A stretch of DNA of 64,000 bases from Candidatus Uhrbacteria bacterium CG10_big_fil_rev_8_21_14_0_10_50_16 (GCA_002774875.1 PCYM01000001.1:246153-310152); one strand, 5' to 3'; positions 6,598-50,221 are shown, numbered from the stretch's first letter. Program-made: numbers and translations. The notes: generated from the sequence alone by a model not told the origin.

Positions 6598-6682
6598 TGG
6601 TGGGCCGGGAAGGACTCGAACCTTCGTAGGCAATGCCAGCAGGTTTACAGCCTGCCCTCGTTGACCGCTTGAGTACCGACCC
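6598..6682 (-). tRNA. tRNA-Tyr (anticodon GUA), long variable arm
   Basis: Hand-folded cloverleaf: acceptor GGGTCGG/CCGGCCC, anticodon loop CUGUAAA, T-arm GAAGG-TTCGAGT-CCTTC, encoded CCA, 85 nt. Confidence 0.8.
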
Positions 6683-6709
6683 ATAGATTGTTGCTTATCC
6701 AAAATTCAC

Positions 6710-6785
6710 TGGAGCCACCTATCGGACTCGAACCGATGACCTACGGTTTACAAAACCGTTGCTCTACCAACTGAGCTAAGGTGGC
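6710..6785 (-). tRNA. tRNA-Thr (anticodon UGU)
   Basis: Acceptor GCCACCT/AGGTGGC, anticodon stem ACGGT/ACCGT with loop TTTGTAA, T-arm ATCGG-TTCGAGT-CCGAT, discriminator U and encoded CCA, 76 nt. Confidence 0.8.
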
Positions 6786-9294: not shown

Positions 9295-9488
9295 TTCCAT
9301 ACCCCATTTCCCATCAACCATCCCCCATCTACTATTCCTCGTTCCTCATCTTCCCCTAAAACATGATCATCACAAGCAACGTCGCGCCGATGCCGCACAC
9401 AAACCCAAATACAAAGCTTGTTTTGGACGGCATGCCAATTAAGAATTTCCACATAGAACCAGACGCACCTGATTTTTTTGACAACATA

Positions 9489-11630
9489 CTACAACCGTTT
9501 TAATCGCAATGAATTGAGAAGTACCGAGATAGAGGAAAACGCCATAGCACCTGCTGCGATCATTGGATTCAACAATCCTAGCGCCGCCAACGGGATACCT
9601 AACACATTATACAGGAACGCCCAAAATAGATTCTGTTTTATGGCGTTGAACGTCTTGCGCGAGATATAAATAGCCTCAGGAATCTTAGTTGGCTCGCCAC
9701 CCACCAGCACAATTTGACCAGACTCAATGGCAATATCCGTGCCGGTTCCCATCGCAATGCCAAGGTCCGCCTGGGTAAGAGCTGGTGCATCATTGATTCC
9801 ATCACCCACAAATGCCACACGGTTGCCTTTAGCCTGCTCCTCTTTTACGAGTCGTAGTTTATCCTCCGGCATTACCTCTGCGTGCACGTCATCAATTCCA
9901 ACGGCGTTTGCAATTGCGCGTGCCGTTTGTGTATTGTCTCCCGTGAGCATAACGGTGCGTGCGCCCATGGCCTGCAATTTTTTGATTGCCTGTTCTGCCC
10001 CTGCCTTTACAGGATCTGCAATTGCTACAAATCCCATCAATACACCCGCTTTAGAGACAAACACGACGGTCTTTGCCTCATGCTGCAGCACCTCTACCTG
10101 TTTTGTGACTATTGAATCGATCGCCTCAACCACATACGTCGCACGGCCAACACGCACGGTTTCTCCGTTGATTTCACCTTGGATTCCCTTTCCTGTTTCC
10201 GTTTGGACATTTTGAACCGGTGGCAACCCAGCCGTCCCCGCGTGTCGCACGATTGCATCTGCCAACGGATGCTCCGATAGTTTCTCCACAGCCGCCGCCA
10301 ACAAAATAAGCTCAACGTCTGATCCTTTTAGAGCAACCACGTCTGTAACGGCAGGTTTTCCCATAGTAATGGTTCCCGTTTTATCCAACATCACCACGTC
10401 CACCACCTTTCCTCGCTCCAACGCCTCACCCGACTTAATAAAGATACCGCTCTTTGCCGCACGACCCGTCCCTACTAAAATCGCCGTCGGCGTCGCTAAC
10501 CCAAGCGCGCACGGACAGGCGATCACCAGAACCGCAACCGCCGGAATCAACGCTGTTTGCAGATCACCGCTGATCAAGTACCACACAACAAACGTCACAA
10601 GCGCAATGCCAATCACAATAGGCACAAACACACCCGAAATCTGGTCTGCCAGCTTCTGCATAGGGGCCTTTTGCGCTTGTGCATCTTTGACGAGTTGTAC
10701 GATTTGCGACAACACCGATTCCCCCGCCAGCTTAGTCATCTTCACGTGGAGCGGTCCTTTTTGATTCACCGTTGCACCATACACCTGTGCACCGATCGTT
10801 TTCTTAATAGGCACACTCTCTCCTGTCAGCATGGACTCATCTATGGTTGATGTCCCTTCCGTCACTTCTCCGTCCAACGGAATCTTCTCACCTGGTCGTA
10901 CTAATACCACATCGCCAATCGCCAGTGTCTCTACATCCACATCTCTAAACGACCCGTCCTTCAACACAAGATGCGCCTGTTTTGCCCCGAGTTCGAGTAG
11001 CTTTTGAATCGCCTCGCCTGCACGCCCCTTACTCAACGCTTCAAAATACCGACCAATCAAAATCAACGCCGCAATCACCGCCGCCGTTTCAAAGTAGGCT
11101 TCTCCACTTTGTGTAATGGACCACACACTGAATACGGTCGCCACTAATGTCCCCATGGAAATAAGTGTGTCCATGTTGGCACGGCCTTTTTTGAGTTGAT
11201 TCCACGCGGTCACATGAAACCCGAGCCCCGGCCAGAAAATCACCACCAGCGTAAGCACCGCCTGAATCGCCAGACTCGACGGAATCCCAAACACCGCACC
11301 TGGCAACGAAATCTTAAACATCGCCAACACAAACACTGGAAGCGCCAATATCACGGCCGTCAGTGCCTTCTTCTTTGCCGCAGCACCCGTCTCATGCATA
11401 TGCTCATGTCCTTCCATTCCCTCCATCTTCTCGTTACGTACCGTATATCCCTCTTTTTTTACAATCTCCTCTAGAGCAGCACGATCCAAATCCGTCTCAA
11501 CCACTGCCTCTTCCGTTGCATAGTTGACGTTGGCGTTCGTTACCTCTGGCAACGCCTTAAACGCCCCTTCAATATTGACCGCGCAACTCGCACAATGCAT
11601 TCCTTCTATCTTGAGCGTATGTTTTGTCAT
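9489..11630 (-). CDS. copA: copper-translocating P1B-type ATPase
   Basis: N-terminal HMA motif GMHCASC, membrane CPC motif, DKTGT phosphorylation site, GDGINDAP hinge. Confidence 0.85.
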
Positions 11631-17066: not shown

Positions 17067-17930
17067 CTATGCAGCGGCCTCATTCTGCGCCGCAGACGTC
17101 TGTGCCTCTTCCTTTGCGGTCACAACCTCTTTGTAATTTTTTAACTTCTCTTGCAACGGGATCAGCATCTCACTGATCAGTCTGTTTCCTTGTTCCCCTT
17201 GAGAAACAGCCCGCGCAGCCAGACCATCCACACCTTCATTCTTAAGAATATCCGGCTTTTCCCTATAGGAAACTTGTCCATCCAATACCTGAAACTTCTG
17301 TACAAGCTCTTCCCCCCTCTTCTTTTCCGATAAAAAGACATCGAGCTGATTCGAAAGCCGGTCGACTAATTTTAACGCCTGTTCTCCTGGCATGTTTGTA
17401 ATTGCGTCAGTGACGTCAAATTTAGGTAAGGACCCACCATTTTTATCCTTTGCCCATCCCTTTTTTGCATAACCAAGCTGATCTCGAATCATACGGTTTA
17501 AAGATGGGAGTTCGTCAATGCCATCACGGTCTTTAATTTGAGATGCAAGCGAATCAAATAATGACGGGTTTAGCTCACGTAATACGTCGGAAATAATTTC
17601 CAGCTCAGCCCCCAACATCTCAACACTTCTACCGTTTGGATCTACGAGTTCATTAAGCTCAAGCCCGGCCTTCTGGACACCTTCTCGATCGAGATTTGCT
17701 AGTTCTGGATATCGTTCTGCAAGTTCACTAGGACTAAGTGCCTCCGTTGCCGTCTCATAGATATCCTTGAGTTTCTCATCGGCGCTTGTGAGTGACTCCA
17801 TCTCTGGAGATTGGCTCAATAACTCCGCATTCTCCTTTATTCCCTGTTCCTCTTGAGAGACCTCCTCTAAGCCAAATCCACTCTCTGAGTTTGACGTTGA
17901 CATACTTCTTACATTAATTATTGATCCCAT
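17067..17930 (-). CDS. acidic hypothetical protein
   Basis: 287 aa, glutamate/serine-rich. No recognisable domain. Confidence 0.4.
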   Translation of the reverse strand: MGSIINVRSMSTSNSESGFGLEEVSQEEQGIKENAELLSQSPEMESLTSADEKLKDIYETATEALSPSELAERYPELANLDREGVQKAGLELNELVDPNGRSVEMLGAELEIISDVLRELNPSLFDSLASQIKDRDGIDELPSLNRMIRDQLGYAKKGWAKDKNGGSLPKFDVTDAITNMPGEQALKLVDRLSNQLDVFLSEKKRGEELVQKFQVLDGQVSYREKPDILKNEGVDGLAARAVSQGEQGNRLISEMLIPLQEKLKNYKEVVTAKEEAQTSAAQNEAAA

Positions 17931-18071
17931 TATAACAAAATTAACGTTTTTATTCTTCTTCGACCACTGTGCATTGCATTATTAACGTCAATTTATTACT
18001 TTCTGCTCTTATTTGAATAAATTAAGCAGGTGGTAACCTGGATGTCTTTCCAAAGGTGCAAAATGAGAGGA

Positions 18072-18092
18072 GGTGGATAAAGGGGACAGGCA
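18072..18092. repeat. 21-nt motif GTGCCTGTCCCCTTTATCCAC (inverted copy), copy 1 of 3
   Basis: Reverse complement of the motif at 61696-61716. A near-identical copy lies at 62748-62767. Confidence 0.6.
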
Positions 18093-18130
18093 CACGTATC
18101 CACACATGTATTTCTGCTTTCGCAGCACAA

Positions 18131-18160
18131 CAAAAAAACAAGCCTTTCAGCTTGTTTTTC
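18131..18160 (-). terminator. hairpin plus T-run immediately 3' of the displaced tRNA-Thr 3' fragment
   Basis: ACAAGC-CTTTCA-GCTTGT hairpin with a flanking A/T run. Consistent with the original chromosomal tRNA terminator. Confidence 0.45.
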
Positions 18161-18163
18161 TCA

Positions 18164-18208
18164 TGGAGCCACGATCGGGAATCGAACCCGAGACCTCATC
18201 CTTACCAT
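18164..18208 (-). repeat. attR-like partial tRNA-Thr(GGU) copy (tRNA positions 32-76, intron-less)
   Basis: 45 nt identical, apart from one T-loop base, to the 3' part of the tRNA gene at 26306-26345, and extending through an uninterrupted ATGGTAA anticodon loop. Confidence 0.7.
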
Positions 18209-18413
18209 GAAGTTCCCATAGAAGATAATGGAGAAGAGACACTGTTTACGGAGTAAAACCACGATTTTTATCTCTAGTACCTGTCTTCTATGTAGACCAC
18301 TTTATTACCTGCAACAATAGCTCTGTTGAAAGGTTCTGATGTTCGTAATAATGTGTTAATTTTGGTAAATTGTATAGGTATTATATAGTAAAAAATTGTA
18401 TTACTCAAGCTTT

Positions 18414-18911
18414 TTACAAATTATATTTATGTAAAAATGAATCGGTTATTTCTTCCCCAAGCGTTATTCCCAGTATGGTCTTTGTATCATCTGGAGTATC
18501 TGTAGATCTTCGTGCTCGTACTTTAAGCTGGTCTAATTCTCTCATTCCATTTTCTGGTAAACGTGCCATTTTTGCAAAACTTTCGCGGCCACCTCGTCGC
18601 TTTTTCTGTATATCTTCGACACTTAAAATTTCGACACGCTTTACATCTATATACGTTGTCGTTTTCGGAAAATGTCGTGTCTGTACATCACACCATTCTT
18701 TTGGTTCAACAATTTTCGTCGTCCACCTTTTGCAGGAGCTTCCCCGTGAGGTAAGTACAATAAACGGGAAGATAGCTAACTCATCAGCTATCACCGTATT
18801 GGCTAGTTTGTATTTTACCTTCACATCACCCGTGCTTTCTTCCCTTGAGAACTCATCACGATATACCCAGCCACGCTCAACAATATTGGCCATGAGTATG
18901 GAGAGTTGCAT
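18414..18911 (-). CDS. hypothetical protein downstream of the Panacea-domain gene (candidate toxin partner)
   Basis: 165 aa ORF starting 5 nt after the upstream gene. No recognisable family. Confidence 0.35.
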   Translation of the reverse strand: MQLSILMANIVERGWVYRDEFSREESTGDVKVKYKLANTVIADELAIFPFIVLTSRGSSCKRWTTKIVEPKEWCDVQTRHFPKTTTYIDVKRVEILSVEDIQKKRRGGRESFAKMARLPENGMRELDQLKVRARRSTDTPDDTKTILGITLGEEITDSFLHKYNL

Positions 18912-18916
18912 GCTAT

Positions 18917-19393
18917 CTACGCTTCAAGATTAAGAACCTCGTTGATGTGTTCATTACCACCAAGAGTTGCACCCAAAGCTTGCATAGGTGCAGTCTTGTA
19001 CGCAATGTCTGTTAGAGCCTTTGCACCGTAACCCTTTAGTGACTCCATGATTTCGTTGAACATAGCTTCCTGGACTTCCGTAATAGAAAAATCGGTATCA
19101 GTAGGTTCTTCGTTAAAATTATATACAATGTATTCCTTCCCGTCAGAAGTATATTCCGTCGTCGCAATGGCGACACCGTCGTCTATCAAAGCCTTCAAAT
19201 CATGATATATCGCTTCGTCAAATGGACCATAGGTATAGCGTCGATACACATAGCCAAAATAAACATCCTGTTCTTTTTTTCTAGCAATGAGATCCAGAAG
19301 GTACGCTAACTTCATCAAAACCGTTACCGTGGGTCGCTCGTGTCTTTGAATTAGTTGAGCGATTAATTTTTGGCGGTTTGATAATTCTGGCAT
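18917..19393 (-). CDS. Panacea/SocA-like (DUF4065) antitoxin-type protein
   Basis: LMKLAYLLDL...YTYGPFDEAIYHDL resembles the Panacea domain core. Called from memory of the family, not from a search. Confidence 0.45.
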   Translation of the reverse strand: MPELSNRQKLIAQLIQRHERPTVTVLMKLAYLLDLIARKKEQDVYFGYVYRRYTYGPFDEAIYHDLKALIDDGVAIATTEYTSDGKEYIVYNFNEEPTDTDFSITEVQEAMFNEIMESLKGYGAKALTDIAYKTAPMQALGATLGGNEHINEVLNLEA

Positions 19394-19447
19394 ATAAACA
19401 AAGTTTACACGAACACTGAGAGCCAGTAAACGTGAGGTATGGATAAG

Positions 19448-20407
19448 TCACCCAACATACTTCCCATTCCCAAGCTTCTCCACGCTATCACGTAGGGCCT
19501 CTGTAGTGACCTGACGGCCGTATTTTAGCGTCATACGCGGGTCTACGTGTCCCATGAGTTGTTGTACGTGAGAAAGCGAAACACCTTGTGCGTAGAGGTT
19601 CGCAGCGTACGTGTGCCTACAGCGGTGCACAAAGAAATTCACTCCGCTCTTTTGTTTGATCAGGTCGGCCAAGTGTTTTAACCCATGCTTACCAAGCGGA
19701 CGGTTTCTTTTTGAAGACACAAACAGTGCATTCGTCGTGTACGCAATAGGATGATCCTCTCTTGCTCGTAGATACCGCTGAAGCTCGACCATAAGTTCCC
19801 TCTGCAAGGGAATAGTCCGTGTCAATTTGGATTTAGACGTCTTGCCTTCCACAGTAAGTGTCCGTTGTTCCATATTTACGCTCTCCAATGTAAATCCGAG
19901 AAGTTCATTACGTCGTATACCCGTTAGAATGAGTAGTTTTAGTATAGTGTAATTTCTACAGCGAAGAAATTCCGTTGCCCACTCATAATCGTACTGACAA
20001 AACTGCAACAATTTATGTATCTCTGTTTCTGTAAGGTAACGTCTATCCACATACTCTACATGCGGTTTGCTGATTGTTGGCAAGGGATTCTCCTTAATTT
20101 GTCGTGTGTCTACCAACCATCGCATGAACTTCCCCCACTTACTCCTGTATGTTAGAAGCGTGGAGTTTTTTACACCCTTATGTTGTTTTCCGTTGTTGAG
20201 GGTTCGTGTTCGCGTTTGGAGCGTCTCAAAAAGTCCGATCCAAAAACTACGTTCTTGCACAGATTTTAAATCAGCATCAGGAGCGAGCTTAAAAAGTAAC
20301 GAGAGAGCGGCACGATACCCCTCTAACGTATCTGGGCGAGCACCTGCTGTATATTGTTGTTCGCGCAAAAAATCGTCGAACAAGACCTGTAATTCATTCT
20401 GTTGCAT
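19448..20407 (-). CDS. tyrosine-type site-specific recombinase/integrase
   Basis: C-terminal HRCRHTYA...GH...Y catalytic motifs, 319 aa. Confidence 0.85.
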   Translation of the reverse strand: MQQNELQVLFDDFLREQQYTAGARPDTLEGYRAALSLLFKLAPDADLKSVQERSFWIGLFETLQTRTRTLNNGKQHKGVKNSTLLTYRSKWGKFMRWLVDTRQIKENPLPTISKPHVEYVDRRYLTETEIHKLLQFCQYDYEWATEFLRCRNYTILKLLILTGIRRNELLGFTLESVNMEQRTLTVEGKTSKSKLTRTIPLQRELMVELQRYLRAREDHPIAYTTNALFVSSKRNRPLGKHGLKHLADLIKQKSGVNFFVHRCRHTYAANLYAQGVSLSHVQQLMGHVDPRMTLKYGRQVTTEALRDSVEKLGNGKYVG

Positions 20408-20816
20408 ATAATTATTTTGATAAATAAAAACCGCCTAAAGACCCAACATCCAAAATGGACATTCGATTTTTAGGCGGTTGCACTTATTTTGTGGCACGGT
20501 GTACATGTTTACGCTTCGGGATCCATGTACAGATAACCCCGACGAGCGGTCAGCGTCTTACGACGTCAACTTGTTGCTCCACATTTGTTGCTCAACCCAA
20601 ATTGAAATGTACTACGTGATACATTCTATGCGAAAAAGTCTCTTTGTCAACGTATACTAGCTAACTTTGTGAGGTTTATTTACTTTGCAACTTTATGAGC
20701 TTTTACACTTTGTAAACTTTTGTCTGCTAGATCTAGCAAATAACCAATAATCCAAAAAACAAAAAATCGGATCCCTGTCCGATTTTTGTGTTGACCTCTT
20801 GTGTGGATAACTACAT

Positions 20817-21713
20817 TCAGCTACCGATGCCTTCTAGTCGTTCATTCACGTCTTGATAGCTCGCATCTTCCGCACATACACGTTCGTAATACCGTTTTGC
20901 ATCTTTTGGTTTGCCGAGTGCCTCACTACTTACTCCGAGTTGATAGAGCGTTTCTAACAAATCCTGATCCAAGTTACGCTTTCGTGTTGGAGCCTTTTTT
21001 AGTGTCTCAATGGCTAGCTCATGCTTTCCTTGCTGAGAAAAACACCGTGCCAGCAGGTTAAGATAACGCGTCTCTTTTTCATCCCCCTCACAAAGCTTTT
21101 GCAATAAGGAGGTCGCCTCCGAATAACGTTGCAACTCAACGAGGCTATCCGCTAAAGGATAGATCGCCCCCATTGGAGGTTCTTCCTCCTCTCGCAATGC
21201 TTGGAAACCTTTTACAGCCTCCGCATAGTTCTTGTCTGCATAATCCAACAAACAGATCAGGAAATGTGTCTCTCTATTTGGTTTTTGGATTTCATTTAGG
21301 ATTAATCGTGCCGAGTCAATATCATGCTTGTCTATTGCATTTTTCGCCCTCTTATTCTTATAGGGTGCCGTTTTTGTGTGTTTCCAATAGAAATAGCCAA
21401 TAACGGCCCAACCCAACAATCCAACTGGAGGGGCTATTACCGTCAGAATAAGCAATATAACCACGCCCACAAAGGTACCGCAGCCAACAAGACCACGTGT
21501 AAAATCTTGCGCACCAGTTGATGAGTTACCACCAGATATCTGCTGACGCGAATAGATACCCGTTCCAGGAATACTGCCATGAACGTAGCTACCTTTCGAA
21601 TTCATTCCAACACGTAAGCCTTTAACACCAGCGCTAACACCGAGACCGCTTTTGCTCAAGTTCAACTTAACACCCTTGCCTAGTCTAATTGATTTTCGGA
21701 ATCCATATGCCAT
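20817..21713 (-). CDS. DUF4236-TM-TPR repeat protein
   Basis: N-terminal MAYGFRKSIRLGKGVKLNLSKSG matches the DUF4236 signature, followed by a TM helix and TPR-like repeats. Confidence 0.5.
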   Translation of the reverse strand: MAYGFRKSIRLGKGVKLNLSKSGLGVSAGVKGLRVGMNSKGSYVHGSIPGTGIYSRQQISGGNSSTGAQDFTRGLVGCGTFVGVVILLILTVIAPPVGLLGWAVIGYFYWKHTKTAPYKNKRAKNAIDKHDIDSARLILNEIQKPNRETHFLICLLDYADKNYAEAVKGFQALREEEEPPMGAIYPLADSLVELQRYSEATSLLQKLCEGDEKETRYLNLLARCFSQQGKHELAIETLKKAPTRKRNLDQDLLETLYQLGVSSEALGKPKDAKRYYERVCAEDASYQDVNERLEGIGS

Positions 21714-21746
21714 ATATCTACATGGTCTCAGATAATGTTCGTTTCA

Positions 21747-22280
21747 TCAATTCCTTTCTGTAATCGTGGGCTCTGACAAAACCTCCCAATTGCTCACCAT
21801 CATGGGCGAGCCTCCTTTGTATCGCAAGTCAACCGTATAGTACAAACGCCCTTCTGTACCTAAGGCATTTGATGCGATGACGTATCCACTCATCTGATAC
21901 GTATCGCCCCCTGTACTAACCAATCTAGCCTCTGTACAGCTTGGCTTACGTGCTTCGTCTGGGTATTTTGTATAACCTTCAATAACAGCCCCTGCTACAA
22001 ACGCGTGAATATCACAAGCTGTTGGCTCACGATCCACTGACGTGGTCGTGCTGCTGCTCGCCGTGCTCTCTCCCGAGTAATCTCCGGGTTCGCTCACCGC
22101 AACAGCAACAATCATAATAAAGAACAAAATACCAAAGAAGACGAAAGTGCCTTTCATGTTAAATCCGCCTTTCTTGACCGTTGTCTGGCTAGGTGTGCCG
22201 ATGTCTGATTTGCAATGCTTGCAGTAAATAGCTTCTGCAATAATTTCTTCCGCGCACAGTGGGCATTTCTTTTTCGTCAT
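21747..22280 (-). CDS. zinc-ribbon membrane protein
   Basis: N-terminal CPLCAEE...CKHC ribbon, one TM helix, extracytoplasmic Ser/Thr-rich domain. Confidence 0.4.
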   Translation of the reverse strand: MTKKKCPLCAEEIIAEAIYCKHCKSDIGTPSQTTVKKGGFNMKGTFVFFGILFFIMIVAVAVSEPGDYSGESTASSSTTTSVDREPTACDIHAFVAGAVIEGYTKYPDEARKPSCTEARLVSTGGDTYQMSGYVIASNALGTEGRLYYTVDLRYKGGSPMMVSNWEVLSEPTITERN

Positions 22281-22281
22281 A

Positions 22282-22608
22282 CTACGACTTCAACACGTTA
22301 ATAATTGCGACGAGCGTTGGTCCACCAAAGAAAATCACGAATGGAAGAAATACACGTACGCGATGAAGCGTTTTTTCCGAGACACGATGCCGAATAAGTG
22401 GCAAGTAGTAGTCTGTTAAGGAAAGTGCAAACAAAGCCATTATAAACGCATTTTGAGCGTTCTCAGACGTAGGTTCTGATAGCAGAGTTAGCCCACCAAA
22501 AAACAACAGGATTCCGATCACGTTTCCAACTTTCGCTCCCAACGAACGTTGCTGTGTCTTGTTTGGCGTCGAGCCTGAATCATCAGCCTTTGTTTTAACG
22601 TTTGTCAT
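22282..22608 (-). CDS. small membrane protein
   Basis: 108 aa with three predicted TM helices. Starts 2 nt after the upstream gene. Confidence 0.35.
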   Translation of the reverse strand: MTNVKTKADDSGSTPNKTQQRSLGAKVGNVIGILLFFGGLTLLSEPTSENAQNAFIMALFALSLTDYYLPLIRHRVSEKTLHRVRVFLPFVIFFGGPTLVAIINVLKS

Positions 22609-22614
22609 GGTTTT

Positions 22615-22680
22615 TTAGCAGTGCTTGCACTTCACCGCCTCGTCTTGCACCTCTTCGGCACAATAAGGACATTTTTTCAT
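22615..22680 (-). CDS. 21-aa zinc-ribbon peptide MKKCPYCAEEVQDEAVKCKHC
   Basis: Short ORF below the ORF-track cutoff. Its motif duplicates the N-terminus of the 21747-22280 protein. Confidence 0.25.
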   Translation of the reverse strand: MKKCPYCAEEVQDEAVKCKHC

Positions 22681-22886
22681 AATATTGCGGTTTTATGGGG
22701 CGGTATACTAAAAGCCCGCCACCAGCGATACCCCCGAGGGGATACCTGCCACCCTTTCGGATGACAACCGCAATAGTGCTCTGATGACGAGCTCAGAATA
22801 CTATTGCGGATTTGATGCCATGCCCTGGAAACCAAGGTTTAGGCTAAATTGTAGTAGTATTGTATTAAATACCCATTAATAAATCA

Positions 22887-23519
22887 ATGCCTCCATCCTA
22901 TATATCTATGATAGATAAGAACACTCTTAGTTCCTTCGTAAAAGAAGTCGATCATGCTTACCAACAGTTTTCTGTTTGGAAATACTGCAACAACCAATAC
23001 GCAGAACATTGTGATAACTTTGAGGAAAAGCTAGTACAGCACTGGGCAACGTCCGTGGAAGAATTCATGCAAAACAACCGTACATTTCAAAACTTTTGGG
23101 AGGTTACCTTACCGTCGCTACAACATGCTTGGATGATATCTGTTTGTAGATTAATGGATCCTGCTTTCTTTCAAAACGATAAGACCAAGCCAAACCTTTC
23201 CTTGGATTACATTATTGAACATCTTGATAACGATGTCCTGATCAACCAGATCCGTTTATCTGCAAAGACACACAGCAGTTACACCAAACATATGAAAACA
23301 TGGCGAGACAAATACCTTGCCCATAATGATTTTAATTTTGCGGAGCAAACTATTGAGGCGGGATATGAAGACTACATAGAGTTCCTTGTCGAAACCATTA
23401 AAAACATCAAGAAACAATACCCACACCTTAAGGACTGCAATAACGTCGACCTTATTTGGTTGGATCGTGTTTCTGAAACAGGTGTAAAAGAGGTCTTCGA
23501 AAAGCTTTCTGTTGATTAA
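22887..23519 (+). CDS. hypothetical protein with an Rx5H HEPN-like motif (candidate Abi-type protein)
   Basis: 210 aa helical protein with WRDKYLAHND near the C-terminal half. Tentative. Confidence 0.35.
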   Translation: MPPSYISMIDKNTLSSFVKEVDHAYQQFSVWKYCNNQYAEHCDNFEEKLVQHWATSVEEFMQNNRTFQNFWEVTLPSLQHAWMISVCRLMDPAFFQNDKTKPNLSLDYIIEHLDNDVLINQIRLSAKTHSSYTKHMKTWRDKYLAHNDFNFAEQTIEAGYEDYIEFLVETIKNIKKQYPHLKDCNNVDLIWLDRVSETGVKEVFEKLSVD

Positions 23520-23532
23520 ACGCTGGGCACCA

Positions 23533-23554
23533 AACTTATAATGCGTTATAAGTC
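23533..23554. repeat. 22-bp recombinase-type site (9-bp inverted arms around a 4-bp core), left copy
   Basis: AACTTATAA-TGCG-TTATAAGTC. A 21-nt exact match, in inverted orientation, to 25353-25373. Confidence 0.65.
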
Positions 23555-23718
23555 TACGTGCTTGACCGTTTCTACCCCCCCTACCAGGGGTAGACGTTTT
23601 CGACGTTTATTCGATCGACCTATGCCGAATAAATACTAAGATTAGAGATAAATAAAAATCGTACTTTATCTACTTTGCGTGGTTTTTCTGTGGATAACCT
23701 TCCGATTCTTTCGGAAGA

Positions 23719-24705
23719 CTACGATACCAATGCTCTTCTTAGATTTTTAAAGTGAATAGTCTCACTTTGGTCCTTCGGGAACATCTCCAACAAGGTGTAC
23801 GGATAATATCCAGCAAGCCCACTGATAATAGTCGCGCCATATTTCACATCTTCTTCAACACGTTTTTTCCAATCTTTGGGCTGTGTCGAACTAATGACAT
23901 AGATACGTAATCCATGGTTTATTACACCGTCTGCAAGAACGGCGTTTATGTGTTCATCCCCGAAACCATAGCCTATAATAAGCATTTTTTTACTGTCTTC
24001 TTGAACAGCTGAGGAAAATAGATCGAAATACGCTTTTAGTAAAGGTTCAGATGTAATCGTGTGTACTTTATTCTTCCCAATAACCATCCTTGTGGACCCG
24101 TCAGAAGCAACCCAACCATAGGAACCATGAAGCTTAATATAAACTGGTCCAGCATGACCTCTGATGGCGGTTTCGACAAGATTGTTAACTTTATCTTCCG
24201 TTGGTAATACTAAGAAATCAGACTCCTCCAATGATGTCGTGCTCAGCCCGCCCTTTTGTGCATGAAATCCAGGCACCCCTGGGCATACACTTCCGCTCCT
24301 GCGTTCCATGAACAGGTCTTGATTCAGTGTGAAGAATACGCTAATTTTTTCTCTGCCACTATTGAATAAGCTGAGTAATCTATTTAATGTATACCAACAT
24401 ACAGGATGTGCTGAATCGTCTCGGAAAACCCAGTCCTTAGTGGCTATGTCTAGATTCTTATAAGCCTCTCTAACGGCACTCTGTATTCTCTCTTTATCCT
24501 CACAAGATACGGACTTGTCATCATTCACACGGCTGTACACGGATTCGTAGTCAAAGTCATCACACAGTAAACTCCTTAATTTCTCTGATGATTGAACATC
24601 TGGGTGATTGTATATTTGAGACCACATCTCTGAAGCCAAAAAACCACCAAAGTTTTTAGTAAACCCCGCCCCAGTCAGCAATATTAGGTTATGGTAATTA
24701 GACAT
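23719..24705 (-). CDS. SIR2-like domain protein (SIR2_2/defence-type, standalone)
   Basis: LLTGAGFTKNFGG Rossmann start, FTLNQD (the TTNYD-like motif), IKLHGS, IGYGFGDEHI. 328 aa. Overlaps the upstream gene by 8 nt. Confidence 0.65.
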   Translation of the reverse strand: MSNYHNLILLTGAGFTKNFGGFLASEMWSQIYNHPDVQSSEKLRSLLCDDFDYESVYSRVNDDKSVSCEDKERIQSAVREAYKNLDIATKDWVFRDDSAHPVCWYTLNRLLSLFNSGREKISVFFTLNQDLFMERRSGSVCPGVPGFHAQKGGLSTTSLEESDFLVLPTEDKVNNLVETAIRGHAGPVYIKLHGSYGWVASDGSTRMVIGKNKVHTITSEPLLKAYFDLFSSAVQEDSKKMLIIGYGFGDEHINAVLADGVINHGLRIYVISSTQPKDWKKRVEEDVKYGATIISGLAGYYPYTLLEMFPKDQSETIHFKNLRRALVS

Positions 24706-25384
24706 CTTTACCTTCCTCCTCTGGGGATGTCTCTTCTAGCCCCTTAGTCACCATGGACGGCAGAACGAACAGAAACTCTGCAAGAGCTTGAGCAAAGTTG
24801 ACAGTCAACTTTGCATCTTGGTAGCTAGGCATCATTGCATCATCGTCAGCATGTCGTTCTTCATTGGCCTCTAATCGTACTTGATGCGCCCAAGTGGACA
24901 TATCTTGGGTTATAAGATGCTTACCTGCCGCCTCATCTATTCGGCTGTATAATGAACCGTCTACGTAACCTTTTTCTTTCAACATCGCATCAACCGAACT
25001 TGCGGCAAGCATGATAGCACCAGAAGGCGCATGGAGACATTCTAATGCCTGCAAGAGGTAGGCCCTAGGCTTCTCTGGTATCACTTCATCTACACTCATG
25101 ACATTTGGATAGATTTCCAAAACAGCGCCCCCGGGATGTCTACTTGAACACACAACCACACCACCACAACGCTTGCAAACATACAGACCCCAATAACGTC
25201 GATTGTCACCTTTGTGATCGGCTGAGCCAACCCCATGCTCCAGTACCAAACTTGGGGTGTCTGTGGTGCAATGTGGACATCGATCCAGTTCAAGATTTTG
25301 GGATAAATTTGGCATACAATAGAAATTTGTGTAGATATTACCACATTTCTCGGACTTATAACGCATTATAAGTCGAGCTATCAT
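24698..25384 (-). CDS. zinc-ribbon + DUF4145-like (HEPN-related) protein
   Basis: N-terminal CPHC...CKRC ribbon. C-terminal helical domain with LKEKG...LYSRIDEA...AHQVRLEANEERH, resembling the DUF4145 R..(G/A)N...H signature. The start codon lies inside the 22-bp site. Confidence 0.5.
   Translation of the reverse strand: MIARLIMRYKSEKCGNIYTNFYCMPNLSQNLELDRCPHCTTDTPSLVLEHGVGSADHKGDNRRYWGLYVCKRCGGVVVCSSRHPGGAVLEIYPNVMSVDEVIPEKPRAYLLQALECLHAPSGAIMLAASSVDAMLKEKGYVDGSLYSRIDEAAGKHLITQDMSTWAHQVRLEANEERHADDDAMMPSYQDAKLTVNFAQALAEFLFVLPSMVTKGLEETSPEEEGKDV
25353..25374. repeat. 22-bp recombinase-type site, right copy (inverted)
   Basis: GACTTATAA-CGCA-TTATAAGTC. It encodes the last codons plus stop of the integrase and the first codons (MRYKS) of the DUF4145-like gene. 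Confidence 0.65.
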
Positions 25385-26273
25385 CCAATGGATGTTTGTT
25401 AATCTGTGTGCGCAGGTGTTCTGCTGAAGCGGCGAGGTAAATGCTTGTCGTTTTTAGGTCGGCATGACCTAGCATTTTTGAGAGAGAGTAAATGTCACAT
25501 CCGCCCTCTAGCATCATCGTAGCGAAGCTGTGACGTAGCTTGTGCACGCTGAATTTTATTCCTGACGCTTCCTTCATCTTCTCAACCAACCTCTTCATAC
25601 CTGTCCCCGTGAATCCAACGTTACGGTTAAGGGAGGCAAAGAACTCTGGGCAGGTTTTGTGTAGCCGTTTACGTTCTACAAGATAACGATCTAGACTCTC
25701 CTGTAATGCTGAGCAAATCGGCACTACGCGATCCTTTGACCCTTTGCCCTGTCGAATAAAGATAGAGCGGTTCTCTACATCTATATCGTTGTACTGCAGG
25801 TTAAGCAATTCCTGTTTTCGCAGTCCTGCATATAAGAATGTAGCAAAAATCGCATGATTGCGATACTTAAGGTACTTGTAAGGATAAGGGAAGTTCATAG
25901 CCGTTTCCAATATCCGCATCGCCTCTTGTTTGGTGAGCTTAGGAGGCAAACGCCGTTCAAGTTTTGGCATCTCCATTCCATCCGCAGGGTTCTCTTGCAT
26001 ATACCCCTGTTCCACACACCACCTGAAAAAGACGACAAAGCTCTTGTGGTACGTGATGAAGCTGTTAGCCGACCATTTGCGCGTTGTCCTACCATAGAGC
26101 ATGTAGCGCTCAAAACAAGGCTTAGTGACCTGCTGAAGCGTTTCTATGCCTTCTGTACGTATAAAGAATCCCACGGCGTTCTTATATCGCTGAATAGTCG
26201 TTGGTCTGTACCCACGAATAAACGAAGAGTGGTCACAAAATTGTCGCAACGCTGTTTGTATGTACATAAACAA
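25356..26273 (-). CDS. tyrosine-type integrase adjacent to the tRNA-Thr attachment site
   Basis: HKLRHSFAT...GH...Y catalytic box, 305 aa. A terminator hairpin separates it from the tRNA 3' end. Confidence 0.85.
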   Translation of the reverse strand: MFMYIQTALRQFCDHSSFIRGYRPTTIQRYKNAVGFFIRTEGIETLQQVTKPCFERYMLYGRTTRKWSANSFITYHKSFVVFFRWCVEQGYMQENPADGMEMPKLERRLPPKLTKQEAMRILETAMNFPYPYKYLKYRNHAIFATFLYAGLRKQELLNLQYNDIDVENRSIFIRQGKGSKDRVVPICSALQESLDRYLVERKRLHKTCPEFFASLNRNVGFTGTGMKRLVEKMKEASGIKFSVHKLRHSFATMMLEGGCDIYSLSKMLGHADLKTTSIYLAASAEHLRTQINKHPLDDSSTYNAL

Positions 26274-26305
26274 AAAATCCTGATGGTGAACATCAGAACC
26301 TTTCG

Positions 26306-26589
26306 TGGAGCCACGATCGGGATTCGAACCCGAGACCTCATCCTTCGCTTACACCCTAATTTATTTCGTCACGTATATAGGGACTAGACTGTATATTAGG
26401 CATATTCCCTAAGGAACTTAGCCCCCCTTGTCAGTCGTTCGGGCGTTTCTTCGATTGACGCCACGGTCTTACCCTTGTGACAGGGCTTTAACCGTTATTC
26501 GGGATTCACTCTACCGTTTCCAGTGGGGTGGGCTACTTTCTCGTATGAAAGTGACCATGGATGCGCTCTACCGACTGAGCTATCGCGGC
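26306..26589 (-). tRNA. tRNA-Thr (anticodon GGU) interrupted by a ~208-nt intron between positions 36 and 37
   Basis: Exon 1 at 26589-26554 (GCCGCGATAGCTCAGTCGGTAGAGCGCATCCATGGT). Exon 2 at 26345-26306 (AAGGATGAGGTCTCGGGTTCGAATCCCGATCGTGGCTCCA). Joined they give a canonical 76-nt cloverleaf with a G4-U69 wobble. The intron-less version of the same 3' part is present at 18164-18208. Confidence 0.6.
26346..26553 (-). ncRNA. putative group I-type self-splicing intron in the tRNA-Thr anticodon loop
   Basis: The 5' exon ends in U and the intron ends in G. A UAUACAGUCUAGUCC segment resembles the group I S/P7 region. No ORF inside. Confidence 0.35.
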
Positions 26590-26751
26590 TTAATTGTTTT
26601 CTTGGTATATGGTGAAAGCACCATCATTGTAATACAGAGGTGTCCCCTTCGGGGACTACTTTAGTAAAGGAAGTGGTATCTATCTCTCACACAACAGCCG
26701 AAACGGCTGTAGTCTTAGGGATAATACTCTTCTTAACTATAGACCTCTTTA

Positions 26752-26789
26752 TTACCATGGATGCGCTCTACCGACTGAGCTATCGCGGC
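26752..26789 (-). repeat. second copy of tRNA-Thr(GGU) positions 1-38 (pseudo-tRNA 5' fragment)
   Basis: A 36-nt exact repeat of exon 1 plus AA. It is followed by degenerate tRNA-like sequence and a 164-nt hairpin-rich spacer. Confidence 0.55.
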
Positions 26790-26800
26790 ACGAGCCTCGC

Positions 26801-27589
26801 CTACAACGGCAGACTATAAATGCGATCCTGGAACTCCTCGATCTTATTATTCTCAGGATTCACCTGTTTGAGCAATTTCAACCCTTTTTGAGCGCGTTTG
26901 CGATCGCCGGCAAGTATACTCGCATCGATCAGAAAATCAAGGTACTTGGGGTTATTGGAACGTAAATCCACCGCCGCCTCAAAATACTCCACAGCTTTTT
27001 GCGTCTCGCTCGCCCGCATAGCCAACTCTCCAAGCGACGTCAAAATACTCGCATCCTCCGGCGCCAACGCCGACGCATACTCAAATGTCTGCCGTGCTTG
27101 GTCAAACTGTTTCATATCCACATACACTTTCCCCAACAACTCATACACTTCCGCATTCTTGGCATCCAAACTCAACAACTCAATCAATCGCTGCTCAGCC
27201 GCCGCGTAGGATTCCTTCTCAATCAACTCCTCCGCCTCTTCTTTAAGGTGATTGCGCATCTCCAACGTTCCCGCCACATCGCCAGACGACTCCTTTTGCA
27301 ATCGCTTGTAATGACGCTCCATGGCCTGTGCGTGGTGATACAATTTTTTGATCAACCCTTTCCCCTCACGCGTAACACTCGACGCTGCCTTTCCAGCCTT
27401 CTGCGCACGCTCACCGCCAATGCGCTCCAACCGTTGCACAAACAACGCACGCTTTTTGCGACGTTTCTCGCGTTCCGGGTCCGAGGACACATCCAACACA
27501 ATCAACTTGCTGTAATAACGCACCACAAACCAAACAATAACGGCTAAAGACACAACCAGCAACAGTAACGGTAATAACCACCAAAGCAT
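26801..27589 (-). CDS. membrane-anchored TPR-repeat protein
   Basis: N-terminal TM segment. TPR-like helical repeats in the C-terminal half. Confidence 0.55.
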   Translation of the reverse strand: MLWWLLPLLLLVVSLAVIVWFVVRYYSKLIVLDVSSDPEREKRRKKRALFVQRLERIGGERAQKAGKAASSVTREGKGLIKKLYHHAQAMERHYKRLQKESSGDVAGTLEMRNHLKEEAEELIEKESYAAAEQRLIELLSLDAKNAEVYELLGKVYVDMKQFDQARQTFEYASALAPEDASILTSLGELAMRASETQKAVEYFEAAVDLRSNNPKYLDFLIDASILAGDRKRAQKGLKLLKQVNPENNKIEEFQDRIYSLPL

Positions 27590-49999: not shown

Positions 50000-50028
50000 T
50001 TGACAGCCCTCATTAAGCCCTATATACT
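50000..50028 (+). promoter_or_regulatory. sigma70-like promoter TTGACA-N17-TATACT for the rplJ-rplL operon
   Basis: Exact -35 and a good -10. It leaves a ~190-nt leader before rplJ, the L10 leader position. Confidence 0.5.
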
Positions 50029-50221
50029 CCTCATAACCTTAACCGTAGACAACGGCTGCCTGAAAAGGCTTAATTGGCCGTCGAGGTAGAGAATCGTATA
50101 AAATCCTAGGATTTACACGCGTTTCTTCCGATGTCTGTGGTTTAGGGCCACAGGTTTTTTTAATTAGAAGTGGGATCCGGGACGGTGTTCTTCTCCCCTA
50201 TTCCTCAATTCTACAGATGGT

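Follow-up and report, generated by a model that had tools for sequence, protein, structure and literature searches.

We analysed a 64-kb window (the whole stretch of DNA studied) from a Candidatus Uhrbacteria genome, a member of the Candidate Phyla Radiation (CPR)/Patescibacteria, in which an integrative island with two tyrosine recombinase genes lies at a tRNA-Thr(GGU) gene. All pieces of tRNA-Thr(GGU) in this region are on the minus strand. Read on that strand from the attL junction, the island opens with a 162-nt spacer, followed by an intron-bearing tRNA-Thr(GGU) gene, the recombinase gene int1, the cargo, the second recombinase gene int2, and the other arm (Table 1). An initial annotation, drawn up without database searches, had placed an integrative element in tRNA-Thr(GGU) and given it two tyrosine recombinases and immunity-type cargo; this part of its description stands, the cargo being of defence or toxin-antitoxin type. 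Its list of genes was borne out by Pfam, which returned Phage_integrase, SocA_Panacea, DUF4236 with TPR, a weak zinc ribbon, HEPN_AbiU2, SIR2_2 and DUF4145, and G+C is 38-46% within the island against ~50% outside. What did not hold were its boundary on the int1 side and its mechanism of integration.

Junctions and comparison with an empty site

The initial annotation overlooked a second copy of the tRNA 5' half, at 26754-26789, which matches the 5' exon of the intron-bearing gene (26554-26589) at 36 of 36 positions, extends through ATGGTAA (26752-26789 in all), and then departs from the tRNA as TAAAGAGGTCTATAG. This copy alters the interpretation of the island. In the related locus L001, from Ca. 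Uhrbacteria UBA11717 (TIM 86% identical), the TIM and TPR genes are followed by an intact, intron-less tRNA-Thr(GGU) gene with the same terminator and 3' flank. The L001 tRNA corresponds to window positions 26789..26752 joined to 18208..18164, with the T loop TTCGATT shared and only two D-loop bases different, and the site has no intron, spacer or extra 5' half. A further relative (L002) carries an intron-less gene after its TIM gene, plus a downstream open reading frame (ORF). Relatives with an empty tRNA-Thr(GGU) site, a comparison proposed at the outset, do therefore exist.

Comparison with L001 shows that a single insertion (18209-26751) sets the window apart from the empty site, and that the 7-bp anticodon loop stands as a direct repeat on either side of it; counted with one copy of this core, the island measures 8,550 bp. 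The host gene is left as two pieces, 26789..26752 and 18208..18164, and is rebuilt at neither junction, where ARAGORN finds no tRNA. Both host pieces are dead. The displaced 3' part runs on into a 3' flank of ~145 nt that is homologous to L001; synteny is lost ~145 nt past the tRNA, so the right flank backs the empty site over that stretch only.

The two junctions read CATCC-ATGGTAA-TAAAGAGGTCTA (attL) and CTTCA-ATGGTAA-GGATG (attR), which limits identity between the recombining partners to 7 bp. We reconstructed the attP junction as GGGAACTTC-ATGGTAA-TAAAGAGGTCTATAG and attB as GAGCGCATCC-ATGGTAA-GGATGAGGTCTCGG. Like attB (CATCC-ATGGTAA-GGATG), the attP core (CTTCA-ATGGTAA-TAAAG) forms an imperfect palindrome. 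Tyrosine recombinases use a 7-bp overlap between symmetric arms. We consider it very likely that the island integrated in the anticodon loop of an intron-less host tRNA-Thr(GGU) gene, and our explanation of the locus as a whole is only slightly less likely.

The initial annotation had proposed a classical tRNA island spanning 18164-26345, in which an attP carrying the 3' 40-45 nt of tRNA-Thr entered an intron-bearing host gene and rebuilt it beside the integrase gene. This is the commonest tRNA-island arrangement (PMC4383910), and int1 does abut the intact gene. The repeat on which the proposal was built is also real: the 3' ends recur at 18161-18203 and 26303-26345 (43 nt, 95% identity), and within the tRNA part the sole mismatch is in the T loop (TTCGATT against TTCGAAT), leaving the 3' copies identical at 39 of 40 positions. 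The distal copy extends through an unbroken anticodon loop (ATGGTAA, 18202-18208), and a hairpin with a T-run terminator stands behind each copy (18132-18154 and 26272-26297). A tyrosine recombinase gene does lie 38 nt 3' of the proximal copy, although its start is the ATG at 26267 rather than the TTG at 26273; an exact look-up of the TTG-start protein gave no match, and the ATG-start form is on record. The two copies, however, are parts of two different tRNA genes, an outcome that the initial annotation had itself envisaged, so the 40/45-nt repeat is not an att duplication. The distal copy adjoins the host flank without a break and its T loop is of the L001 type, the absence of intron, spacer and extra 5' half from the L001 site does not fit an intron-bearing target, and the 5' half at 26752-26789 and its 162-nt spacer go unexplained. 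The intron-bearing tRNA gene is cargo of the element and not its target, the boundary on the int1 side lies at 26751/26758 instead of 26345, and the crossover point is the 7-bp anticodon loop rather than a site 3' of the T-loop mismatch. Nor does an attP with a tRNA 3' segment rebuild the gene, as the attL junction (CATCC ATGGTAA TAAAGAGGTCTA) is not a tRNA. We regard the classical arrangement as highly improbable here.

Table 1. Features of the island and its junctions, in minus-strand order.
Feature	Position	Strand	Remarks
Host tRNA-Thr(GGU) 5' fragment, positions 1-38	26752..26789	-	Joined to TPR/TIM flank; matches L001 intact tRNA except two D-loop bases
attL copy of crossover core, ATGGTAA	26752-26758	-	Final 7 nt of host 5' fragment
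Spacer, element-side arm of attL (P' arm), 162 nt	26590..26751	-	Opens with conserved C' motif
C' motif TAAAGAGGTCTA	26740-26751	-	Start of spacer
Replacement tRNA-Thr(GGU) gene, element-borne	26306..26589	-	Spliced form is canonical tRNA; stems covary
Replacement gene 5' exon	26554-26589	-	
Replacement gene group I intron, 208 nt	26346-26553	-	After U36; final base G
Replacement gene 3' exon	26306-26345	-	CCA encoded
Hairpin and T run behind replacement tRNA	26272..26297	-	Direct reading; counterpart hairpin in L060, L062, L063
int1, Xer-like tyrosine recombinase, 303 aa	25356..26267	-	Pfam Phage_integrase 1e-32, plus SAM-like N-terminal domain
DUF4145 protein	24698..25384	-	Pfam 1.3e-06; start uncertain, 205-228 aa depending on gene call
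SIR2-like protein	23719..24705	-	Pfam SIR2_2 1.7e-07; PADLOC SIR2 models down to 1.7e-11
HEPN AbiU2-like protein	22887..23519	+	Pfam 2.4e-11
LOOT RNA (Rfam RF03000)	22727..22845	-	69.1 bits against gathering score 46.4
Two small ORFs, 108 aa and 177 aa	21747..22608	-	Second with weak zinc-ribbon match
DUF4236 and TPR protein	20817..21713	-	Pfam 3.5e-19, plus TPR families
int2, second Xer-like tyrosine recombinase, 319 aa	19448..20407	-	Other family than int1; Pfam 2.2e-29
Panacea pair, whole (weak PADLOC matches PDC-M19A, DarG)	18414..19393	-	
SocA/Panacea-domain protein	18917-19393	-	Pfam 3.4e-09
Panacea partner, 165 aa	18414-18911	-	No known family
Element-side arm of attR (P arm)	18209..18344	-	Holds second C'-like motif copy
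Second C'-like motif GGTAATAAAGTGGTCTA	18291-18309		~96 nt from core
Displaced host tRNA-Thr(GGU) 3' part, positions 32-76	18164..18208	-	Identical to L001 tRNA including T loop TTCGATT
attR copy of core, ATGGTAA	18202-18208	-	First 7 nt of displaced 3' part
Original terminator of host tRNA gene	18132..18154	-	Direct reading; kept in L001

A replacement tRNA gene interrupted by a group I intron

In the tRNA gene carried by the island, where the initial annotation had already seen an intron, 208 nt stand precisely at the U36/A37 boundary, within the 7-bp core (ATGGT/AA). Removal of these nucleotides gives a canonical 76-nt tRNA-Thr(GGU), in which position 59 is the one difference from the rejoined host halves. 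Plain ARAGORN and Rfam searches missed the interrupted gene; with introns allowed, ARAGORN found it with a shifted splice site and called it Arg, His or Pro. Rfam assigned neither intron nor spacer to a group I or any other family (window at gathering score; 26200-26900 at E <= 10), and its matches in 26200-26900 were chance ones only, to tmRNA and YrlA via the T arm.

We wrote out a fold of the intron with helices P1-P9 and the P3/P7 pseudoknot, and counted its pairs on a 20-sequence alignment (A4), using slid partners as controls. In this fold 93.7% of cells are paired (33-43% in the controls), 45 pairs are changed on both sides, and the covariation score is 0.438 against ~0.08. The U36.G wobble pair at the 5' splice site is invariant in 20/20 sequences, with two invariant G-C pairs adjoining it and a covarying P1 extension, and the terminal intron G (omega G; G244 of the window precursor) is likewise invariant. 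The helices follow the order of the group I core, P3-P4-P5-P6-P7-P3'-P8-P7'-P9. Covariation is seen in P2, P5, P6, P8 and P9, with one covarying pair in P3, while P4 and P7 are invariant and so speak neither for nor against the fold. Loop L2 reads as a GAAA tetraloop, and a CUAAG/UAUG motif in P8 resembles the 11-nt tetraloop receptor. The tRNA stems formed by the exons are 100% paired and covary, which indicates that the interrupted gene is under selection as a tRNA.

The intron would splice itself out of the 284-nt precursor, presumably in a guanosine-dependent reaction, and the spliced tRNA would take over decoding from the split host gene. The only other threonine tRNA within the window is UGU, found in a tRNA-Thr(UGU) and tRNA-Tyr pair at 6598-6785 (-). 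Transcription of the replacement gene may start at the host tRNA promoter and run on through the spacer.

Patescibacteria are already known to carry divergent group I introns in tRNA-Thr(GGU), at position 36/37, which both RF00028 and ARAGORN miss (Williams 2020, bioRxiv 10.1101/2020.01.27.920355; mSystems 2026, PMC13011429). Table 1 of PMC13011429 lists three complete genomes with such introns (GCA_001029635.1, GCA_016700375.1 and GCA_030583745.1). For that intron class a bacterial tRNA-intron model was used instead of RF00028, and other Patescibacteria tRNA introns sit at 33/34 or 35/36 (PMC13011429). The window intron shares with the divergent class its phylum, tRNA and insertion point, a similar length and the same tool misses, and is very probably a member of it. 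The text of PMC13011429 has neither integrase nor recombinase, whereas here the intron-bearing gene is the cargo of an island that splits an intron-less host gene. An exact search of viral contigs with 20 nt of the intron core gave no match.

Two Xer-like recombinases

Homologues of Int1 at 52-78% identity adjoin tRNA genes or tRNA fragments. Invariant residues of Int1 are R150, K175, H242, R245 and Y277, and both proteins keep the R, K, HxxR and Y residues. Int1 stays below the NCBIfam equivalog cut-offs, with scores of 180 against 220 for XerA, 172 against 335 for XerC and 167 against 330 for XerD, and Int2 scores lower; the nearest solved structures of the two proteins are XerC-like and XerA. 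Neither has an arm-binding domain. They share 25-36% identity with each other (25% for the window's pair), and between loci Int1 is conserved at 56-78% and Int2 at 33-54%.

The exchange would take place at the borders of the anticodon loop, catalysed by Int1 and/or Int2, and the two may work as a XerC/XerD-like pair, with one protein on each half-site of the asymmetric core. Two-recombinase systems are known in XerC/XerD and in TnpA/TnpB of Tn554. The island resembles both in having two different, simple tyrosine recombinases of ~300 aa in one unit, both proteins probably being needed at the one asymmetric core site. It differs from XerC/XerD in that Int1 and Int2 fall under the equivalog cut-offs, that their genes flank attP instead of the proteins acting at dif, and that their joint action is presumed.

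Related elements in other loci

Int1 has thousands of relatives. Our sample of loci was gathered through int1 and comprised 84 loci whose Int1 is 52-78% identical. Of these, 22 carry tRNA-Thr(GGU) with a homologous intron directly upstream of int1, and ~13 an intron-less tRNA-Thr(GGU); in a few loci Thr(CGU), Thr(UGU) or Lys(UUU) takes this place. Where the upstream sequence suffices, a host-like 5' half ending in (A/T)TGGTAA is found at 16 intron-type loci (and in the window) and at nine intron-less loci. The 5' half, core and spacer occur together at 25 distinct metagenomic loci, with spacers of 100-189 nt, and most of these 25 attL junctions have a TAAA(C/G)nGGTCTA motif after the core.

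Complete elements with both ends are L071 (7,350 bp), L131 (8,387 bp, core TTGGTAA) and the intron-less L083 (6,415 bp). In 4/4 complete elements, window included, int1 follows the tRNA and int2 lies toward attR; int2 is the last gene before attR in L071, L131 and L083, and in the window only the Panacea pair comes after it. The outer halves of L083 pair with each other (TCACC/GGTGA) and the inner gene has its own stem (CAACC/GGTTG), so the outer pieces are one former gene and the inner gene is a different one. Three intron-type loci (L126, L120, L068) and the intron-less L152 show the attP order, int2, P arm, core, spacer, tRNA and int1, and these attP forms carry a whole tRNA gene. L071, L131, L083, L152, L126, L120 and L068 share a motif of the (A)AACAGGTC type 90-100 nt 5' of the core, which is also present in the window (18291-18309). 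Across the loci surveyed, attB, attL/attR and attP forms are thus all observed for the family. Cargo varies by locus and includes Shedu, restriction-modification genes, a diversity-generating retroelement, AAA ATPases and an nSTAND NTPase.

The classical arrangement meets further difficulties here: the 5' half and spacer that it leaves unexplained co-occur with int1 in 25 loci, the outer halves of L083 pair mutually and not with the inner gene, and the attP forms hold a whole tRNA gene, not a 3' segment. We also weighed a history of several events, in which the 5' half and spacer are the scar of an older element, the intron invaded independently and the island arrived later. Nested or tandem cases are known in the family, namely L070 with two successive 5' halves and L152 with a tandem junction, and the second C'-like motif copy near attR could be taken the same way. 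A single insertion with a 7-bp repeat nevertheless accounts for the entire difference from L001, the same order of parts recurs in many hosts, and the P-arm motif ~95 nt from the core is regular in attP forms and not a scar. Several events are very unlikely to lie behind the window locus, if somewhat less so than the classical arrangement. In L070 itself (9455-9954), the two successive host-like 5' halves stand before the replacement tRNA, and an oddly joined 3' copy lies ~3.4 kb downstream; this locus probably represents nested or tandem elements in one tRNA gene.

At ~20 further loci int2 directly precedes int1, and an att-like site separates the two genes. Sites between int2 and int1 hold the 3' half of Lys-CUU (L087, L113) or Thr-GGU (L077), the 5' half of Lys-CUU (L104, L111) or Arg-CCU (L137), or a whole tRNA gene (L127, L152). 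Read from these sequences, one family of elements mends its target in three ways, through the 3' half, the 5' half or the whole gene.

The intron as a possible recombination shield

The intron puts 208 bp between the half-sites of an otherwise perfect attB, which lies 162 bp from attL in direct orientation. At 13/16 intron-type loci the anticodon stem is the same as that of the target, and at 9/9 intron-less loci it is different (Fisher p = 1e-4). The intron-less stems have many different, compensated sequences, and in five intron-less loci 13/25 stem positions differ against 4/95 just 5' of the stem (p = 9e-8). That the stem is kept with the intron and changed without it suggests that the spare gene is shielded from the element's own recombinase. 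By separating the half-sites, the intron would keep this recombinase from deleting or rearranging the island, and intron-less relatives would reach the same protection through a re-coded anticodon stem.

We see about an even chance that selection acts against an attB-like site inside the element and is met by either the intron or stem re-coding. The wider proposal is more tentative, and we rate it just short of even: that the tRNA-Thr(GGU) intron is a shield for a two-recombinase island carrying an otherwise perfect copy of its target, that the island spreads an endonuclease-less intron, and that relatives mend their targets in three interchangeable ways.

The integration model may also be right with the intron as a selfish or neutral passenger, the stem differences of the intron-less genes then reflecting their foreign origin. 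Many tRNA genes do retain group I introns that have no function (PMC13011429), the phylogenetic relatedness of the loci means that 13/16 against 0/9 may reflect few events, and the attP half-sites differ from attB, which implies loose recognition. A passenger does not account well for differences that cluster in the 5-bp stem (13/25 against 4/95 in the adjacent sequence), for many different stem sequences that imply repeated change, or for an intron that sits inside the 7-bp core and not at 33/34 or 35/36 like other Patescibacteria tRNA introns (PMC13011429). We think a passenger intron rather unlikely, though it is the strongest of the alternatives.

Several observations weigh against our explanation of the locus. 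The shielding correlation comes from related, non-independent loci, and the attP half-sites are themselves loosely similar to attB, so the stem change needed for escape is hard to gauge. RF00028 does not match the intron (gathering score; E <= 10), and a scan of 26200-26900 found no sigma-70-like promoter for the replacement gene. In many different hosts the exons of intron-type genes and the host halves have identical sequences, which a simple foreign-gene picture would not lead one to expect; our guess is gene conversion, or transfer between near relatives only. The ~20 loci with int2, attP and int1 side by side lie on long contigs and show no second att site within 10 kb. In the window's own population neither an excision product nor an empty allele was found: all contigs with an identical TPR gene that extend past it have the island, which may thus be fixed and no longer active in this species.

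Identity between exons and host halves was recorded for the window (WIN), L071, L075, L079, L080, L084, L101, L105 and L131. Two Logan contigs (L149, L150) stop ~40 nt past the TPR gene, at the repeated 5' half.

The missing empty allele would also suit a fixed, domesticated locus, in which Int1 and Int2 would have been turned from integration and excision to another task, for example inverting or exchanging cargo or resolving dimers. In favour of this, the two proteins are Xer-like and lack an arm-binding domain, int2, site and int1 stand side by side on long contigs, and inverted 20-bp palindromes surround the SIR2 module. Presence and absence of the island nevertheless differ between species, the cargo is variable and attP-form contigs exist; domestication would in any case be compatible with a past site-specific insertion. 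We consider it unlikely, and a little less likely than the passenger intron.

Spacer, cargo and neighbouring features

Within the spacer we identified a folded domain of ~115 nt, in which 87% of cells are paired against 37-51% in slid controls and 15 pairs are changed on both sides (five sequences). Its closing helix covaries (GAGG/CCUC, CAGG/CCUG, GUGG/CCAC). Counterparts are present in L060 (9716-9886), L062 (31-196), L063 (31-211) and L064 (7237-7425), and were found in this subfamily only. The domain matches no Rfam family (26200-26900, E <= 10) and is a candidate for a new structured RNA or for folded att DNA. The 5' half and spacer were also considered as a tRNA-like molecule, which was rejected: TAAAG is unpaired with CATCC, and the spacer has no 3' acceptor strand.

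A 17-nt perfect inverted repeat joins the sequence 3' of the replacement tRNA (26288-26304) to the P arm near attR (18328-18344), with ~0.003 chance matches expected in 10 kb. None of the three other complete elements (L071, L131, L083) has it, and it was discarded as a family-wide arm-type site.

The DUF4145-SIR2 pair is bracketed by two 20-bp palindromes, at 23534-23553 and 25353-25372 (ACTTATAA-TGCG-TTATAAGT and ACTTATAA-CGCA-TTATAAGT), which are exact mutual reverse complements. One overlaps the int1 3' end and the other lies 14 nt past the AbiU2 stop; their role may be that of inversion sites, cassette ends or RNA hairpins. The SIR2-like protein is a candidate NAD-depleting defence effector, and scores well under the cut-off of NCBIfam SIR2_antiphage. 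The LOOT RNA (RF03000) has the AbiU2-like gene on one side and the 108-aa and zinc-ribbon ORFs on the other; a literature search on this motif returned as its sole match an author so named. Gene calls in the zinc-ribbon/LOOT region vary among L144-L148, from the window's population, between 108+136 aa and 132+177 aa. No phage structural, lysis or repressor genes were found among the ORFs scanned (Pfam, NCBIfam, PADLOC).

On the right flank, the ~145-nt stretch shared with L001 consists of the terminator and a hairpin (GTGGATA..TATCCAC). The next gene after the host tRNA (17067-17930, 287 aa, 41-45% G+C) has no family match and is unrelated to its L001 neighbour, and 17067-18163 looks like a second variable spot beside the tRNA. 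Elsewhere in the window, a ribosomal protein L10 leader (RF00557) lies at 50025-50171 (+).

Relation to known systems and significance

Both parts of this picture have already been published separately, as tRNA-dependent lysogeny and as divergent tRNA-Thr introns of Patescibacteria; our literature search found no report that links tRNA-dependent integration with these introns. An anticodon-loop sublocation class of integrases was reportedly set out by Williams in 2002, and the island is like this class in placing its crossover in the anticodon loop, flanked by a symmetric stem. With classical tRNA islands (Islander/TIGER, PMC4383910) it has in common the specificity for a tRNA gene, an integrase gene beside the tRNA and a displaced fragment at the far end. 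Classical islands rebuild their target, whereas here both host halves stay fragments and a whole extra gene is supplied. Some relatives of int1/int2 do follow the classical way and hold one tRNA half, 3' or 5', in attP.

The closest parallel is the tRNA-dependent lysogeny of actinobacteriophages (Fionnbharth, Cluster L, Gaia), in which the core is short, the tRNA is not rebuilt and the phage carries a tRNA whose isotype is the same; the Lj965 prophage is a possible further case (Guerrero-Bustamante & Hatfull 2024, PMC10865867). The island likewise has a tyrosine recombinase acting at a tRNA gene and a short core (8-10 bp in the phages, 7 bp here), supplies tRNA of the same isotype, tRNA-Thr(GGU), and leaves the target unrestored at the junctions. 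It differs in being no phage, with defence and toxin-antitoxin cargo only and no virion or lysis genes, and in having two Xer-like recombinases without an arm-binding domain where the phages have one lambda-type Int. Its core is exactly the anticodon loop, and its replacement gene lies 162 nt from the crossover. Its spare gene is near-identical to the target with the core interrupted by a group I intron or, in relatives, with a re-coded stem. On the uniqueness of the host tRNA, the island is viewed within 64 kb, where the other Thr tRNA is UGU.

Randau and Soll proposed that disrupted tRNA genes are kept as protection from integrating elements, as summarised in PMC4390854. In the terms of that summary, an intron in the integration site would likewise make the tRNA gene a non-target. 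Their case concerns archaeal host genes with protein-spliced introns, whereas here the beneficiary would be a bacterial mobile element and the intron would be self-splicing. The proposal that interruption of tRNA genes guards against site-specific recombination would thereby gain a working case, with the element as beneficiary.

For annotation, the locus means that standard tRNA finders miss a working gene and that island finders would choose the wrong repeat as boundary. Few mobile elements and genetic tools are available for the CPR, and a small Xer-like pair whose defined 7-bp core lies in a universal tRNA might be developed into an integration tool for these organisms. If our reading is true, the intron-bearing tRNA-Thr genes of complete Patescibacteria genomes would be island cargo, lying beside fragments of the original gene. 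Patescibacteria tRNA-Thr introns have no homing endonuclease and are thought to be rarely mobile; carriage by islands would offer a route of transfer and explain their spread. Integration that depends on a supplied tRNA would then reach from actinobacteriophages to the non-phage defence islands of the CPR.

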